Origin: a virus | Lineage: Duplodnaviria; Heunggongvirae; Uroviricota; Caudoviricetes | Strand: one strand, 5' to 3' | Virus record (IMG/VR): IMGVR_UViG_2526164633_000050 | DNA length: 6,664 nt | Shown here: piece by piece, positions 1 to 6,664 of the stretch | Position numbering within the stretch: position 1 is the first letter of the stretch | How the letters are laid out: each line of letters opens with the position of its first letter | The notes under the pieces: generated by a model | Database searches by the model: none | Told to the model about the DNA's origin: nothing | Seen by the model: only the letters and a program-made list of their open reading frames with translations | Made by a program: the position numbers and the translations under genes

Positions 1-1278
1 GTACTGCCATCCGCCCTGCGCCAGTCTTCAGCCCGTAAACCGTTACCGGCCTCACTTCCCCGTGAAACCCGGGTCATCCGGCCGGAAGAGGAATGCTGCC
101 CGGCCTGTGGTGGTGACCTCAGTCCTCTGGGGTGTGATGTGTCAGAGCAACTGGAGCTTATCAGCAGCGCCTTTAAGGTTATCGAAACACAACGTCCGAA
201 ACTGGCCTGTTGTCGGTGCGACCATATCGTGCAGGCAACAGTACCTTCAAAACCCATTGCACGCAGTTATGCCGGAGCGGGGCTTCTGGCCCATGTTGTT
301 ACCGGGAAATATGCAGACCATCTGCCGTTATACCGCCAGTCAGAAATATACCGTCGCCAGGGCGTGGAGCTGAGCCGCGCCACGCTGGGGCGCTGGACAG
401 GTGCCGTTGCTGAACTGCTGGAGCCGCTGTATGACGTCCTGCGCCAGTATGTGCTGATGCCCGGTAAAGTCCATGCTGATGATATCCCCGTCCCGGTCCA
501 GGAGCCGGGCAGCGGTAAAACCCGGACCGCCCGGCTGTGGGTCTACGTCCGTGATGACCGTAACGCCGGTTCGGAAATGCCCCCGGCGGTCTGGTTCGCG
601 TACTCACCGGACCGGAAAGGTATCCATCCACAAAATCATCTGGCCGGTTACAGCGGTGTGCTTCAGGCCGATGCTTACGGTGGTTACCGGGTGTTATACG
701 AATCCGGCAGAATAACGGAAGCCGCGTGTATGGCTCATGCCCGGAGAAAAATCCACGATGTGCATGCAAGAGTGCCCACCGACATCACCACGGAAGCCCT
801 GCAGCGTATCGGTGAACTGTATGCCATAGAGGCAGAAGTCCGGGGATGTACAGCAGAACAGCGTCTGGCGGCAAGAAAAGCCAGAGCTGCGCCACTGATG
901 CAGTCACTGTATGACTGGATACAGACTCAGATGAAAACACTGTCGCGTCACTCGGATACGGCAAAAGCGTTCGCATACCTGCTGAAACAGTGGGATGGCC
1001 TGAACGTGTACTGCAGTAATGGCTGGGTGGAAATCGACAACAACATCGCAGAGAACGCCTTACGGGGAGTGGCCGTAGGCCGGAAAAACTGGCTGTTCGC
1101 GGGTTCCGACAGCGGTGGCGAACATGCGGCGGTGTTGTACTCGCTGATCGGCACATGCCGTCTGAACAATGTGGAACCAGAAAAATGGCTGCGTTACGTC
1201 ATTGAGCATATCCAGGATTGGCCGGCAAACCGGGTACGCGATCTGTTGCCCTGGAAAGTTGATCTGACCTCTCAGTAA
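1..1278 (+). CDS. tnpC: IS66-family transposase (TnpC-like), 5'-partial; continues upstream of window
   Basis: Frame 1 is open from base 1 to TAA at 1276-1278. Translation (VLPSALRQ...[27 protein letters not shown]...LWVYVRDDR...[17 protein letters not shown]...[54 protein letters not shown]) matches remembered IS66 TnpC hallmarks: N-terminal Cys-rich zinc-finger, central catalytic region, conserved C-terminal block. ORF-track start at 139 is an internal Met. Confidence 0.93.
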
Positions 1279-1308
1279 ATATCAATACGGTTCTGGCGAG
1301 CCGCTTAC
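1..1308 (+). mobile_element. IS66-family insertion sequence, right-hand portion (left part outside window)
   Basis: Contains the TnpC ORF. The 30 nt after its stop end in ...GCCGCTTAC at 1308, whose reverse complement starts GTAAGCG, the typical IS66-family terminal inverted-repeat start. Exact end is inferred because the left end is not available for comparison. Confidence 0.7.
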
Positions 1309-1565
1309 TTGCTGATGATGCTTTGTGCCAGCTTTTCACGCTGTCCGGCTTCCTCAAGGGATGCCATGAGTTTTTTACCCACGGTGGATTGTGCGAAAAA
1401 GGCTTCCTCCTTCGCTTCCTGTTCTTCCAGAGCCTTTTTGTCTGCCTCAAGGTAGTAACGGATGGCGCGTTGCAGGTCGGTTTCAGTTTCCTGCCTGTGC
1501 TCCGTAAATCTGGCCGGATCAATGGCTGGCCGTGGTTCATTCCAGCTCCATGCAAACTCATTCAT
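1305..1565 (-). CDS. hypothetical prophage protein, 3' end interrupted by the IS66 terminus
   Basis: ATG at 1565..1563 overlaps the TGA of the upstream ORF (ATGA, + strand tcat 1562-1565). The frame runs to TAA at 1307..1305, which lies inside the inferred IS terminus, and the last sense codon (1310..1308) spans the junction. ORF-track start at 1592 is a GTG. Confidence 0.5.
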   Translation of the reverse strand: MNEFAWSWNEPRPAIDPARFTEHRQETETDLQRAIRYYLEADKKALEEQEAKEEAFFAQSTVGKKLMASLEEAGQREKLAQSIISK

Positions 1566-1951
1566 GGCTGGTATCCCGTCACGCGCTGCCACTCCTGCGA
1601 GAAGAGGGCAGAAAGGCGGTTAAATTCAGCGGTGTATTCACTCAGCGAGGCACACCCGCCAGCAGTGCGATGCGCCAGCATTGCCGCAAATACGGAGGCC
1701 GGGGAGTCGTAATACGCCAGCAGTGATTCTCCGTGTGGTGTCAGGCAGTGCAACGCCAGCCCGTGTGGTGTGAAGTCCACGCGGTAGCAGTCGTCTACTG
1801 TGAAATAAAGGGTGTCTGCATTCTCCGGTTTTGTGGTGCGTGCTCTGTTGTCACGACCACGGATGTAGAGATCAAATAATCCCTGAAGAACGGGAGCCAG
1901 ACGGGTGTCCTGTGTGCGCACCCATCTTGTGAAGTCATGAGCGTCAATCAT
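1562..1951 (-). CDS. hypothetical prophage protein (129 aa)
   Basis: ATG at 1951 preceded by AAAGAGAA; 129-codon ORF ending TGA 1564..1562, translationally coupled to the next ORF. Not recognised as any named family. Confidence 0.55.
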   Translation of the reverse strand: MIDAHDFTRWVRTQDTRLAPVLQGLFDLYIRGRDNRARTTKPENADTLYFTVDDCYRVDFTPHGLALHCLTPHGESLLAYYDSPASVFAAMLAHRTAGGCASLSEYTAEFNRLSALFSQEWQRVTGYQP

Positions 1952-2023
1952 GCTGCAATTCTCTTTACTACAGATGTGCGAAGGCCTCCCGCCGCAAGGT
2001 GCAGGAAAGGCCCGGAACAGGAA

Positions 2024-2254
2024 TTAATGGAGTTTGTTTTGCTGCTGGAAGAGTTGTTGCAGCTCGCGCAGATCATCCGCCAGATAGCTGAAAACAGAGG
2101 CGGAATAGATGTTCGATAGCGCGTGGCTGCGCTCATGCAGCATATTGATGTGCATGATTTGCGCGACGCGTGATGCGCGGAAAAGTCTACGGTTGATTTC
2201 AGTCTGGATGTGACGACGCGCAGCGTATGCGCGCTGTTGTTTGCGGTTTGCCAT
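2024..2254 (-). CDS. hypothetical small basic protein (76 aa, Arg/Lys-rich N-terminus)
   Basis: ATG at 2254 preceded by AAGAGG with about 8 nt spacing; stop TAA 2026..2024. Sits downstream of the minus-strand terminator and a putative promoter in 2390-2425. Confidence 0.5.
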   Translation of the reverse strand: MANRKQQRAYAARRHIQTEINRRLFRASRVAQIMHINMLHERSHALSNIYSASVFSYLADDLRELQQLFQQQNKLH

Positions 2255-2431
2255 GGTGTGGCCTCTTTGCTCGGTGATAGAAATAGCTCACCATCCAGAG
2301 TTGAGAATCTCGGGGTGGCGAGACGTACAGGGTTCTCAACACCGGAGAGCAAAGAATCCGGCCCGACCGAAGTCGGCCCCGTACGCCCCGCCATAATTCT
2401 GACGCGAAAAAGACGTGGCAATACAGTACGC

Positions 2432-2456
2432 ACAAAAAAACCGCTGGCGCGGTTAT
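2432..2456 (-). terminator. putative rho-independent terminator (minus strand)
   Basis: Minus strand reads AACCGC-GCCA-GCGGTT (perfect 6-bp stem, 4-nt loop; + coords 2439-2454) followed by a 7-T run (including the two stem Ts) then GTG (A-run at + 2434-2440). Lies about 120 nt downstream of the ORF ending at 2577. Confidence 0.5.
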
Positions 2457-2526
2457 GCGCTTTGCTCTGTATCGGGTTGAGAATCCCGGCACCCGTTTTA
2501 TGAGGTGCAGCGGAAATGTAACCTGA

Positions 2527-2555
2527 CCGATTGCGGCATGGCAAGCGGTTTTTTT
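2527..2555 (+). terminator. putative rho-independent terminator (plus strand)
   Basis: CCGATTGC (2527-2534) / loop GGCATG / GCAAGCGG (2541-2548): 7 of 8 pairs with one A-G mismatch, followed by TTTTTTT (2549-2555). No convincing plus-strand gene lies upstream. Confidence 0.45.
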
Positions 2556-2576
2556 GTGTGTGCATGTTCTGGTTTC

Positions 2577-2876
2577 TTACTGGTTCAGAAAAAAATCAAA
2601 AACCTTGTCAATGCGTTGCAGCAGCTCTTGCTGCATTGCTTCCGGCGTTTCCGGTTCGCCAGGTGCCCCCAGCGTTGCGCAGAAATCAGCGATTTCATGA
2701 TGGAGCGTCAGGCGAATGGCAGGAGCCGTGGTTCTGGCGTGCTCCAGCTGATCCAGCAGTGCCAGCACAGCAGACGGCGAGAGCATTGCGCGAAATGCCA
2801 GTAATTTTTGAGGAGTTGCCATTCGTTGCAGGGCAAATGCCAGTTCGCGTAGCTTCTGGTGGTTGATGGTGCTCAT
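2577..2876 (-). CDS. hypothetical early-operon protein (99 aa)
   Basis: ATG at 2876 overlaps the TGA of the upstream ORF (ATGA, + tcat 2873-2876); stop TAA 2579..2577. Last ORF before the minus-strand terminator. Confidence 0.6.
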   Translation of the reverse strand: MSTINHQKLRELAFALQRMATPQKLLAFRAMLSPSAVLALLDQLEHARTTAPAIRLTLHHEIADFCATLGAPGEPETPEAMQQELLQRIDKVFDFFLNQ

Positions 2877-3139
2877 GTTCTGGCTTCCTTCAGTAGCTGG
2901 TTAAACATGTGAGTAAGTGGATTGCTACACCCGAACGGCATCGGGTTTACTTGGTAAGAAGCCTGGCCTCCAGTTTTGCGAGCGCGACCACCTGTGCTGC
3001 GGTTTGTTCTGATGACTAAGCCGCCGCGCCAAAGTTGGCGTAACTCAGCATTAATGGCTGTGGTTGGAGTATTCAGTGCTGCGGCGATCTCTCCGCCGCT
3101 ACACCCCGGATGAGTAGCGATGTAGTCCAGAATGGTCAT
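2873..3139 (-). CDS. hypothetical early-operon protein (88 aa), possible helix-turn-helix DNA binder
   Basis: ATG at 3139 overlaps the upstream stop (ATGA, + tcat 3136-3139). N-terminal segment DYIATHPGCSGGEIAAALNTPTTAINAELRQLWRGGLV resembles an HTH/winged-helix pattern; this is inference only. Confidence 0.55.
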   Translation of the reverse strand: MTILDYIATHPGCSGGEIAAALNTPTTAINAELRQLWRGGLVIRTNRSTGGRARKTGGQASYQVNPMPFGCSNPLTHMFNQLLKEART

Positions 3140-3339
3140 CTGCGTGGCTCCTGTACTTGTCGGATAAGATTCACCCGCGCCACGTTGGTGGCGCAGAAAT
3201 AAGTGCCGTCAGTGAGGTAGATGTGGTGCGCATCCTTTTCCGAACGATGTTTGTCGATAGTGGTAATCAGGCGTTCGTCGACCTCGTATTCGCGCCCTCT
3301 GGAGGTAAAGCGAACGACGGAAAAATGCTTAATTGCCAT
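3136..3339 (-). CDS. hypothetical early-operon protein (67 aa)
   Basis: ATG at 3339 preceded by AAGGGGG; stop TGA 3138..3136, coupled to the next gene. Confidence 0.55.
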   Translation of the reverse strand: MAIKHFSVVRFTSRGREYEVDERLITTIDKHRSEKDAHHIYLTDGTYFCATNVARVNLIRQVQEPRR

Positions 3340-3362
3340 TGCGCCCCCTTTGTCCAGTAACC

Positions 3363-3701
3363 CTATGCGTTAAATACGGCACGTTGCGCGTCATCAATGA
3401 ATACAGCTTGAGAGCGTTCTATCAGGCGGAGATTTGTCAGAAGCTCAGACTCTTTTGTGTGGTAAGGCGTTATCAGGTATTTGCCGTGCAGTTCGGCAAT
3501 AATGGTGTATTGCGGCATCATTGCTGAACCAAGAATATAAATGCAGCGTCCAATGCTGGACGGATTCATGGCTGCAACTGTTGACTGTGTTTTAAGAGTG
3601 TCGATTTCTTTGCTCTGTTCCTCAATAATTTTGGCTGCGTCAGCGGTGATTTTTGCAATGGTCAGTGCGTGAAGTGCTGCCATATGTTGGCTACGCTTCA
3701 C
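3363..3701 (-). CDS. hypothetical early-operon protein; start uncertain (GTG 3701 or ATG 3683), probably the frameshifted continuation of an ORF starting at ATG 3778
   Basis: Long open frame ending TAG 3365..3363. The frame is open upstream to 3779 but the only in-frame starts (GTG 3701, ATG 3683) lack a Shine-Dalgarno. A strong RBS+ATG at 3778 is in another frame and joins this one at an A7 run (see findings). Confidence 0.55.
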   Translation of the reverse strand: MKRSQHMAALHALTIAKITADAAKIIEEQSKEIDTLKTQSTVAAMNPSSIGRCIYILGSAMMPQYTIIAELHGKYLITPYHTKESELLTNLRLIERSQAVFIDDAQRAVFNA

Positions 3702-3870
3702 GGCATCTTTAGCCGTTTCATCTTCCGCTTCTGATATTTTTTTAATGTGTTGATAATGCCTTCTTCTTTTGTGTTCATTTTATATCTCCGTTATTTACGT
3801 GTGCGAATACCTCCGCGAATGCGGATAGTTTTCAGGTTTTCGGGTTTAATCTGGTGTTTTGTTTAAGCTG

Positions 3871-3984
3871 TTATTCGTCAGTGAAAAAGCGTTCAATCTT
3901 TTTTACTGAATGAATAATTCGCATAATCCCAATGGCGCAGGCCACCGAAATAATCAGAACAAGCCATGAGATAAATATACTCAT
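3871..3984 (-). CDS. putative small membrane peptide (37 aa: MSIFISWLVLIISVACAIGIMRIIHSVKKIERFFTDE)
   Basis: Not in the ORF track (short). ATG 3984..3982 overlaps the TGA of the 80-aa ORF (ATGA, + tcat 3981-3984) and is preceded by GGGGA about 7 nt upstream; stop TAA 3873..3871. One predicted hydrophobic helix followed by a charged tail. Confidence 0.4.
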   Translation of the reverse strand: MSIFISWLVLIISVACAIGIMRIIHSVKKIERFFTDE

Positions 3985-4223
3985 GCGATATTCCCCAGCT
4001 TATACGGTTCAATATGTTCCCCGCATTCTGCGGCACAGATCAGCTCGGAAAGTTCGTTAAGTGCATCCAGATCATCAGCGTAAAAAGCGACGTCATACAA
4101 ACTCCGGATTGCCCTGGTCAATGAGTCACGAGCTGCACGTTCAGCATGAGCGCCTGATGCACTTAAGCGAAAATAAAATCGTTCAAGTGCTTTGTTAATG
4201 AGAGTTTTATATTCTTTGCCCAT
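3981..4223 (-). CDS. hypothetical early-operon protein (80 aa)
   Basis: ATG at 4223 with AAAGGG upstream; stop TGA 3983..3981. Confidence 0.55.
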   Translation of the reverse strand: MGKEYKTLINKALERFYFRLSASGAHAERAARDSLTRAIRSLYDVAFYADDLDALNELSELICAAECGEHIEPYKLGNIA

Positions 4224-4234
4224 CGCAACGCCCT

Positions 4235-4513
4235 TTAATCTGCTTTCTGAATTTCAGCTTCTGAATCCATACAAATAATTTCGATATATGGTTCATCGCC
4301 ATTAACCTGACGTGCCTTTTCAGCTTCGCTAATGATTTCTCGCACGGTCTGGTACGGAAGCTCCACAGTCAGGCGCGTACCGTTCAGATAAACGTAAGTA
4401 GCTGCGTTTTTTTCGGATGGAACAACTCCGTCAATGGCTGATGCGCGTAATAACAGTTCACCGCGAAAATCAATAAAACGGATAAATACACCTTGTGCAT
4501 GCTCTTTGGTCAT
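4235..4513 (-). CDS. hypothetical early-operon protein (92 aa from ATG 4513)
   Basis: ORF-track start at 4573 is a TTG inside the upstream gene. ATG at 4513 is preceded by AGGTG and lies 10 nt after the upstream stop; stop TAA 4237..4235. Confidence 0.55.
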   Translation of the reverse strand: MTKEHAQGVFIRFIDFRGELLLRASAIDGVVPSEKNAATYVYLNGTRLTVELPYQTVREIISEAEKARQVNGDEPYIEIICMDSEAEIQKAD

Positions 4514-4523
4514 AAAGCACCTG

Positions 4524-4865
4524 TTATAAATCAGCCTGTTTAATAAAACTTTGCCCACGAAACAGACGATCAACCGTGCGAAGTGCTTCGTATAATGTGA
4601 AATCCTGCCCGAATTGATTGTCGCCGTAGCTCAATGCAAAAATGCGGTTTCCGGTAAACGGATTGCGTGGGCATTTGTGGATCACGATTCCAGCTTTCTC
4701 AATCAGCCAGGCATGCTCGCCGATTTGTTTTACTGGGTAGCCATCCGGCGTTGCGTGTGTATCACTCAGGCTGTAGCGGATGTTGCTGCGTGATGCACTG
4801 GTAGCGAAACGGTTAGCGTGGCGTTCAGCACCATTACGAAAGCGTGAATTACGTTGCTGTTTCAT
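4524..4865 (-). CDS. hypothetical early-operon protein (113 aa, basic N-terminus)
   Basis: ATG at 4865 preceded by GGGAG with about 6 nt spacing; stop TAA 4526..4524. Second gene of the leftward operon, 18 nt after the cox-like stop. Confidence 0.6.
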   Translation of the reverse strand: MKQQRNSRFRNGAERHANRFATSASRSNIRYSLSDTHATPDGYPVKQIGEHAWLIEKAGIVIHKCPRNPFTGNRIFALSYGDNQFGQDFTLYEALRTVDRLFRGQSFIKQADL

Positions 4866-4883
4866 ATCAAAACTCCCTGCATC

Positions 4884-5210
4884 TCATGCAGCAAAATTAA
4901 GAAAGCCTAATCCCAAATCTTCCGCCAGCTTCTTGGCTTTCTTAAGCCAGTGATTGCGCCAATCTTTACGCTCAGGAGGAAGCTGTTTCGTTGCGTCATA
5001 GACCATTTCGAGCCACTCATTCCAAAGGATGAGAAGACGGCGTGAACTCCCTTCCTCGCCTAAAACCTCGCGCTCAGTAGTTAGAGGGATGAGTCGACGC
5101 TCTACCAACTTTCTTACGGCTGATTCGGTCTTACCTGTGCGGCGGGAAAACTCATCGACGGTGATGGGGTCTGGGATCTTAAACAATGCCCTCAATAGTT
5201 CTTCATTCAT
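4884..5210 (-). CDS. Cox-like small DNA-binding protein (putative excision/lysis-lysogeny regulator), 108 aa
   Basis: First gene transcribed divergently from the repressor. ATG at 5210 has the best RBS (GGGAGA, 7-nt spacer); ORF-track start 5279 and ATG 5267 have none. HTH-like segment ITVDEFSRRTGKTESAVRKLVERRLIP and C-terminal PERKDWRNHWL resemble remembered P2 Cox. Position and size fit a cox/apl-type gene. Confidence 0.6.
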   Translation of the reverse strand: MNEELLRALFKIPDPITVDEFSRRTGKTESAVRKLVERRLIPLTTEREVLGEEGSSRRLLILWNEWLEMVYDATKQLPPERKDWRNHWLKKAKKLAEDLGLGFLNFAA

Positions 5211-5305
5211 GTGATAATCTCCCTGTTTGGGGTATTTCTTGCGACGGATGCCCCAAATCAAACTCATTTGTATAAACATTAATACAGACGTTGGAGAATT
5301 GCAAC
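5211..5305. promoter_or_regulatory. putative lysis-lysogeny switch region (divergent early and repressor promoters with inverted-repeat operator candidate)
   Basis: 95-bp gap between divergent cox-like and C-like genes. Inverted repeat TTTGGGG (5226-5232) / CCCCAAA (5251-5257) with 18-bp spacer. Candidate leftward promoter TTGCAA (5299-5304), 17 nt, TAATGT (minus; + 5276-5281). Candidate rightward -10 TATAAA (5271-5276). Promoter calls are pattern matches only. Confidence 0.45.
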
Positions 5306-5608
5306 ATGCGTATGACTATTGGAGAGCGCATAAAAATCATGCGTGAAAGCGAGAGACTTACTAGCCTCCCGGATACAGCAAAAATGCTTGGTTTAAACCG
5401 TGATGCTCTGTGGAGATATGAAAGCGGTAAAACTATCCCTAATGCTGAAGTAATTGAGCAAATACTAAACAACCCCAGATTTGAGAAATATGCGTTGTGG
5501 TTTATGACTGGGAAAATTGCGCCTGAATCCGGGCAGATAGCTCCGGCTCTCGCACACTATGGGCAAGAGCCAACGGACTTACCCCCATCCGAAAGGAAAA
5601 TTGGCTAA
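5306..5608 (+). CDS. P2 C-type immunity repressor (about 100 aa)
   Basis: ATG at 5306 preceded by GGAGA at 5293-5297; ORF-track start 5291 is 15 nt upstream in frame. N-terminal HTH-like region and the block YALWFMTGKIAPESGQIAPALAHYGQ resemble remembered P2 C repressor. Immediately upstream of the integrase on the same strand, as in P2. Confidence 0.8.
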   Translation: MRMTIGERIKIMRESERLTSLPDTAKMLGLNRDALWRYESGKTIPNAEVIEQILNNPRFEKYALWFMTGKIAPESGQIAPALAHYGQEPTDLPPSERKIG

Positions 5609-5674
5609 CCCTTTATTATTCTTACGTTTTACAAACTGGAAATGTCTTTCCTCGTTTCACCGGAGGGCTTGCCA

Positions 5675-6664
5675 ATGGCAATTAAAGCGCTCGATGGTGG
5701 ACGGTATAAAGTGGATGTTAGACCGCGTGGCCGAAGTGGACGTCGGATTCAGCGGATTTTTAAGAAAAAGGCAGATGCAGTGGCCTTTGAGCGTTATGTT
5801 CTCAGCCACATGCACGATAAGGAATGGCTTGAAAAGCCAACAGAGCAACGTCATCTCTCAGATCTGCTTCCGTTATGGTGGGAATTGGGTGGACGCAATA
5901 AGCCATATGCTAACGGCGTTCTAACCAGGTTGAAAAAAATCATCAAAGAAATGAATGATCCAAGGGTTAGCCAGATTAATGCTCGTTTCATGGCCGCTTA
6001 TCGAAGCTCCCGTTTATCCTTGGGAGTAAAAGAGTCTACTGTTCGGCGTGATGAGTCGGATCTCGGAGGAATGTTTACACTCCTGGCAAATGCCGGGGAA
6101 TTTCACGGAGAAAATCCGCTCCGCGCCCTCCCCTCTTTGAAACGAAAATCACCCGAAATGACGTATCTCACCACGGAAGAAATCGCCAAATTACTGGATG
6201 CAGTAAGCGGTGATGCCCGGCGGATTACGCTACTTTGTCTCAGTACTGGGGCGAGATGGGGAGAAGCGAAAAATCTGCGCGCGGAACACATCATCAATAA
6301 TCGCGTGACGTTTAACAAAACTAAAAACGGAAAAGTTCGAATTATTCCTGTCTCTGATGAAGTTGTTAGTGAGATCAAAACAAAGAAATCCGGCCTTTTG
6401 TTTGACGTCAATTATGAGGAATATCGCAAGGTGCTTCGCAGTGTTAAGCCAGACCTACCAAAAGGACAGGCTGTACATGTTCTACGCCATACCTTTGCTG
6501 CTCACTTTATGATTAATGGAGGAAATATACTTACGCTCCAGCGAATTATGGGGCACGCCACGATCCAGCAAACTATGACCTATGCGCACCTCGCTCCTGA
6601 TTTCCTCCAGGATGCAATTTCACTTAATCCGTTAAAAGGAGGCATCCACATTTCATCCACATAA
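5675..6664 (+). CDS. int: P2-type tyrosine integrase (site-specific recombinase), 329 aa
   Basis: ATG at 5675 preceded by GGAGGG; the ORF-track start 5642 adds 11 residues not expected from the P2 Int N-terminus. N-terminus MAIKALDGGRYKVDVRPRGRSGRRIQRIFKKKADAVAFERY and catalytic boxes (TGARWGEA, HVLRHTFAAHF, GHATIQQTMTYAHLAP, C-terminal LQDAISLNPLKGG) match remembered P2 Int. TAA stop is 6662-6664, the window end. Confidence 0.95.
   Translation: MAIKALDGGRYKVDVRPRGRSGRRIQRIFKKKADAVAFERYVLSHMHDKEWLEKPTEQRHLSDLLPLWWELGGRNKPYANGVLTRLKKIIKEMNDPRVSQINARFMAAYRSSRLSLGVKESTVRRDESDLGGMFTLLANAGEFHGENPLRALPSLKRKSPEMTYLTTEEIAKLLDAVSGDARRITLLCLSTGARWGEAKNLRAEHIINNRVTFNKTKNGKVRIIPVSDEVVSEIKTKKSGLLFDVNYEEYRKVLRSVKPDLPKGQAVHVLRHTFAAHFMINGGNILTLQRIMGHATIQQTMTYAHLAPDFLQDAISLNPLKGGIHISST

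Follow-up and report, generated by a model that had tools for sequence, protein, structure and literature searches.

Very likely truncation of a P2-type replication endonuclease gene by IS679 in a prophage beside pheA of Escherichia coli

The window analyzed here, a stretch of DNA of 6,664 nucleotides, joins the right end of an IS679 element to the early region of a P2-like prophage, and the element very likely truncates the replication endonuclease gene of the prophage (gpA) at codon 86. In the proposed course of events, an IS679 of 2704 bp would have inserted itself by transposition into a P2-like prophage next to pheA, within gene A, between codons 86 and 87 of the 946 that make up this gene. 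The right terminal repeat of the element, which reads GTAAGCG on the coding strand of the gene, would then put a TAA codon directly after Lys86, and the product left would be an 86-residue N-terminal stub without the Phage_GPA catalytic domain (residues 185-509). The window corresponds to the terminal 6664 bases, in reverse orientation, of the draft contig AIHB01000062.1 (assembly GCA_000250235.2, E. coli), and the following features are recognized in it.

1..1308, plus strand: the 1308 bp at the right end of IS679, an IS66-family element, with 100% identity to annotated copies; cut at window position 1.
1..1278, plus strand: 3' part of tnpC, an IS66-family DDE transposase gene, with the frame open from base 1 and the stop at 1276-1278 (Pfam and ORF list).
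1287..1308, plus strand: right terminal inverted repeat of IS679, ACGGTTCTGGCGAGCCGCTTAC, from a by-eye comparison with the left end of the copy in strain 12A (L008), GTAAGCGCATCATTTAAACCGT.
1305..1565, minus strand: gpA', the first 86 codons of a P2-type replication endonuclease gene and an IS-derived TAA (1305-1307), the 258 coding bases being identical to intact genes.
1309..1316, no strand assigned: TTGCTGAT, the first 8 bp of phage DNA beyond the IS end, the predicted target-site duplication, by reference to the 8-bp duplications at other copies.
1562..1951, minus strand: intact early-operon ORF of 129 aa directly upstream of gpA; intact relatives have the same gene (WP_000564228.1) at this place.
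1952..6664, no strand assigned: remaining left arm of the P2-like prophage, from Pfam hits and colinearity with the UMNF18 prophage.
2024-2254, minus strand: 'derepression' ORF of 76 aa (PF25738).
2873-3139, minus strand: MarR-like ORF (Pfam).
4884-5210, minus strand: Cox-like ORF (Pfam Phage_Cox at 24.6 bits, below the curated cut-off of 27.5).
About 5306-5608, plus strand: C-type HTH repressor (Pfam).
5675-6664, plus strand: integrase with Int_N and Phage_integrase domains, adjoining pheA.

The identity of the element is given by positions 1-1308 of the window, which are 100% identical to annotated IS679 copies, both chromosomal and plasmid-borne (RefSeq: 'IS66-like element IS679 family transposase'). 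Also, a Pfam search of positions 139-1278 (plus strand) returned DDE_Tnp_IS66 (PF03050, 3.2e-103), DDE_Tnp_IS66_C (PF13817) and zf-IS66 (PF13005). This identity over 1308 bp, the DDE_Tnp_IS66 domains and a terminal repeat ending GTAAGCG are shared with IS679, and the element differs from the other IS679 copies in its location only, the comparison covering the right-hand 1308 bp. IS679 was first described on the EPEC plasmid pB171 (Han et al. 2001, J Bacteriol 183:4296, as cited in PMC6778807), and the target duplication of IS66 is 8 bp (PMC6778807).

The right terminus of IS679 lies at window position 1308, where the earlier note had placed it. In strains F5505-C1 and E7476, two IS66-family copies inserted at unrelated sites follow the window through ...GGCGAGCCGCTTAC and part from it immediately afterwards. 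The IS679 of E. coli O111:H2 strain 12A, which is 100% identical, likewise ends in ...GCCGCTTAC, after which comes an 8-bp duplication. The end is set at 1308 because the independent copies agree through ...GCCGCTTAC (1300-1308), the last sequence common to them, and all three diverge straight after TTAC. The full copy from strain 12A (L008, 805-3508) is 2704 bp long, carries tnpA, tnpB and tnpC, starts with GTAAGCGCATCATTTAAACC and ends with GGCGAGCCGCTTAC; it sits within a split yiaA/yiaB-family gene, with the 8-bp direct repeat GTACGGCA on both sides. Moreover, the related copy of F5505-C1 (L003) has GTTTCTGA on both flanks, again an 8-bp duplication. The terminal inverted repeats begin with GTAAGCG, the right one being present in the window and the left one, GTAAGCGCATC..., being taken from the identical copy of strain 12A. 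The genes tnpA and tnpB are present upstream of tnpC in identical or related copies, and the left half of the element is absent from the window because the draft assembly breaks at the repeat, position 1 being the physical end of the contig, 1308 bp inside IS679; this absence is not a property of the genome.

On the phage side of the junction, the minus-strand ORF 1565..1305 encodes 86 aa (95 aa if the upstream GTG at 1592 is used, according to the ORF list), and all of its 258 coding bases agree (100% identity) with the 5' end of the genes for 946 aa in the O121 strain RM8352 (L001) and in ETEC6335 (L002). The ORF is colinear with the 5' end of the full-length gene, and both the start position and the upstream gene match. 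In ETEC6335 the gene begins at the equivalent of window position 1565 and extends over 2841 bp (946 aa), the same 946-aa gene is found in UMNF18 (L009) in a prophage at the same pheA site, and RM8352 has a gpA gene of equal extent but frameshifted. In the intact related prophages of ETEC6335 and UMNF18, gpA is continuous across the site, the translated protein reading ...EKLAQSIISK86-R87QATEQDPVARAF..., and the intact 946-aa protein contains the Phage_GPA domain (PF05840) at residues 185-509 (Pfam, E = 1e-129). More generally, window positions 1309-2600 are 100% identical in at least 18 complete E. coli genomes, with the feature at their left end annotated 'replication endonuclease'. According to a 400-bp probe centered on the site, with at least 80% of its length covered, 406 of the 5426 complete E. 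coli genomes contain the site without interruption; those among the matches listed are all annotated 'replication endonuclease'.

At the level of codons, the intact genes read ATC ATC AGC AAG|CGT CAG and the window reads ATC ATC AGC AAG TAA GCG GCT C..., where GTAAGCGGCTC in the coding-strand read is the terminal repeat of the IS. As had been claimed before, the stop codon of the ORF is supplied by the IS and the final sense codon spans the junction: the TAA is the complement of 1305-1307, inside the terminal repeat (GTAAGCG on the minus strand), and the codon AAG is the complement of 1308-1310. The intact target is GACGC TTGCTGAT GATGC. Since base 1308 is a C both in the IS and in the intact phage (...GACGC|TTGCTGAT), Lys86 is native and the position of the junction is ambiguous by one base. 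The 8 bp that would be duplicated as the target are TTGCTGAT (1309-1316), as the earlier note had predicted.

These data also bear on the statement of the earlier note that no replication gene is recognizable between cox and the IS. No intact one is present there, but the truncated ORF is itself the 5' end of gpA, so that the gene found missing and the interrupted ORF are one and the same. The accompanying proposal, that the IS had disrupted early or replication functions, holds for gpA itself. A Pfam search of the 86-aa ORF returned no domain, the Phage_GPA catalytic domain included. Unlike full-length gpA, the window gene comprises codons 1-86 only, and its predicted product is a fragment devoid of the catalytic domain and no functional member of the family. 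The intact alleles resemble P2 gene A and the 'replication endonuclease from retron Ec67' in carrying PF05840 and, like P2 gene A, are located at the end of a Cox-led early operon, although they are longer, with 946 aa against about 761-764 aa for the P2-sized relatives listed from Salmonella.

The first 107 codons or so of gpA form a variable, mosaic N-terminal module (L002, 5801-6257; L010 and L011, 1-120). About 900 complete genomes match the 400-bp gpA probe over its first 136 bases only, the part that covers the gene from roughly codon 108 onward, and some draft contigs (L010, L011) begin near codon 90 with divergent N-terminal sequence. The approximately 900 partial matches point to a mosaic N-terminal module, and the IS679 insertion falls within it.

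In another assembly, with a prophage at yecA, the contig ends one base past gpA codon 86 (L006, 10240-10259). This contig was considered as a second insertion and rejected, being an uninterrupted gpA cut by the contig end: it finishes in ...AAGC, as the intact gene does, and not in ...AAGT. Its identical 86-aa product is most likely a coincidence picked by exact-sequence look-up.

A simple transposition, with duplication of TTGCTGAT and with the rest of gpA located beyond the IS, is the origin of the junction that we consider probable. Such an insertion predicts a left flank ...CCTGACGCTTGCTGAT (the 3' part of gpA), that is, ...GCCTGACGCTTGCTGAT directly before GTAAGCGCATCATTTAAACC. Exact degenerate patterns for either IS junction with the TTGCTGAT flank gave 0 matches in genome contigs and 0 in metagenome contigs, and three C-terminal fragments predicted from the ETEC6335 allele (starts at V95, V104 and M193) had no exact match in the collection. 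Also, a protein search with residues 87-946 of gpA provided four candidates that were checked, none of which is an IS-adjacent C-terminal fragment. Two of them, P0003 (857 aa) and P0004 (856 aa), come from 4.3-kb contigs and begin at the contig end, where a divergent N-terminal module stands and not an IS. The other two, P0031 (735 aa) and P0029 (754 aa), are internal to their contigs, have no IS beside them and look like frameshift or alternative-start calls.

The main alternative, possible although rather unlikely, is that the junction is real but marks the border of a rearrangement mediated by IS679, such as a deletion or an inversion, whether through homologous recombination of IS679 copies with each other or through adjacent deletion, so that the far side of the element would not be the gpA remainder. 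The replication, partition and late genes that make up the remainder of the prophage would in this case be partly or wholly missing, or located elsewhere. IS679 is indeed multicopy in related pathotype strains, with up to 15-16 matching places per chromosome in 12A and FDAARGOS_1059, and the source contig stops inside the IS, the left flank being outside the observed sequence. Moreover, recombination of IS66-family elements drives large deletions, recognizable by non-matching 8-bp flanks (PMC6778807). Nothing speaks directly against this alternative. Nonetheless, on the observed side the complete terminal repeat abuts the target without loss, just as a simple transposition would leave it, and simple insertions are the commoner event.

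A mis-assembly of the repeat in the draft genome would be conceivable for a window that represents the terminal 6.7 kb of a draft contig breaking inside a multicopy IS, and in which a homopolymer of differing length (3738-3744) hints that the sequence quality is imperfect. However, the same IS-phage junction is present in a second, independent assembly (GCA_002542395.1, L007), in a 2775-bp contig that carries 77 IS bases beyond the junction and aligns to window positions 1232-4005 with 99.96% identity over 2775 bp and a single 1-base gap. The identical junction in an independent assembly makes a mis-assembly very unlikely, and a break exactly at the terminal nucleotide of the IS is not favored by chimeric joins. 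Among the 5426 complete E. coli genomes the junction is absent, a 321-bp spanning probe giving IS-only or phage-only matches.

Finally, a reading of the 86-aa ORF as a small prophage gene in its own right, with a natural end and an IS that only lies next to it, would agree with its plausible ATG and stop and with the protein annotated by one source (EHX24346.1, 'putative replication endonuclease from retron EC67 domain protein'), but this is refuted by the read-through of the site in other genomes, since identical DNA elsewhere reads on for 860 codons as one 946-aa gene, none of the homologues checked ends naturally at the same residue (the 946-aa genes continue, and 406 genomes are uninterrupted), the stop codon lies within IS sequence, and the listed members of the 90% cluster of the product, barring a representative with no recorded name, are named replication endonuclease and are mostly partial.

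Regarding the consequences of a truncation of gpA by IS679, the gpA protein of P2 nicks ori and so starts rolling-circle replication, gene A being required. The title of Liu, Saha and Haggard-Ljungquist (1993), cited in PMC5694545, presents P2 gene A as cis-acting and as sequenced together with ori. With a stub that lacks the catalytic domain and a gene A that in P2 is essential and cis-acting, one would expect a prophage that is defective in replication, cannot be induced as a replicating phage and is rescued neither by a co-resident P2-like phage nor by gpA supplied in trans. It is scarcely probable that the retained stub acts as a dominant-negative or exclusion factor against P2-like phages, or that the insertion locks in a host-useful isrK/C4/derepression arm. 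If this were true, the stub, translationally coupled and driven by the early promoter, would act on incoming phages that share its variable N-terminal module.

IS-disrupted cryptic or defective prophages occur in pathogenic E. coli, the defective prophage pool of O157:H7 Sakai being an example. The prophage described here would be like those of the Sakai type in that an IS inactivates an essential phage gene and the integration and immunity module is intact, and it differs from them as one specific instance, with no new principle. The finding is correct but ordinary, a routine prophage decay in which every component is known: IS679 is a characterized member of the IS66 family, its target is a gpA of the standard P2-family kind, and IS inactivation of prophage genes is commonplace. 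Compared with the complete genomes searched, what is new is the insertion site alone. In annotations, the 86-aa 'hypothetical protein' is better labelled as the fragment of a gpA pseudogene into which IS679 has inserted, and the pheA prophage as probably defective. This adds one more case of IS-driven prophage inactivation in IS679-rich E. coli of pathogenic type, and neither opens nor settles an outstanding question.

Apart from gpA, the prophage arm appears, as far as its sequence can be read, to be intact except for one frameshift. The layout is P2-like (Peduovirus-type), with a tyrosine integrase, a divergent C-type repressor and Cox, and an early operon that ends in gpA, the stop of the 129-aa ORF overlapping the gpA start (ATGA at 1562-1565). 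Any structural and lysis genes of the late region would be located past the IS. The gene order matches that of annotated relatives with a 'Cox family DNA-binding protein' and with a phage portal protein beyond gpA, and the gene list of L005 places pheA, tyrA and aroF beyond int. The prophage arm of UMNF18 is the most similar overall, being colinear, located at pheA and 97.4% identical over window positions 1309-6664. The O111:H2 strain 12A was rejected as an intact reference, the best complete genome being only 97.4% identical over the arm; this value implies that there is no near-identical prophage in the complete-genome set.

The homopolymer at 3738-3744 is A7 in the window and A8 in both the independent assembly (L007) and UMNF18. 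The A7 frameshifts the minus-strand ORF region 3363-3779, which encodes 138 aa in relatives, and is probably a draft sequencing error rather than biology.

Two Rfam matches above the gathering score are located on the minus strand in a 320-bp non-coding gap just upstream of the derepression ORF (2024-2254): a C4 antisense RNA (RF01695) at 2311-2398, with 78.5 bits, and isrK (RF01394) at 2434-2508, with 62.8 bits. Together with the derepression ORF, C4 and isrK look like an sRNA-controlled module of the anti-repressor type in the early operon of a P2-like prophage. An ORF of 205 aa (1948-2565, minus strand) runs across the C4/isrK region, overlapping the derepression ORF as well, and its counterpart is called as a gene in a related contig annotation (L006, 9001-9618). 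Because of the sRNA matches, this ORF is probably spurious.

In the intact relatives (L002, 2065-3340; L009, 1066-2340), a parM-like segregation gene and a plasmid partitioning/stability gene are found directly downstream of gpA, and in ETEC6335 the portal gene comes after the parM-like and partition genes. Such a plasmid-type partition module is unusual for an integrated P2-like prophage.
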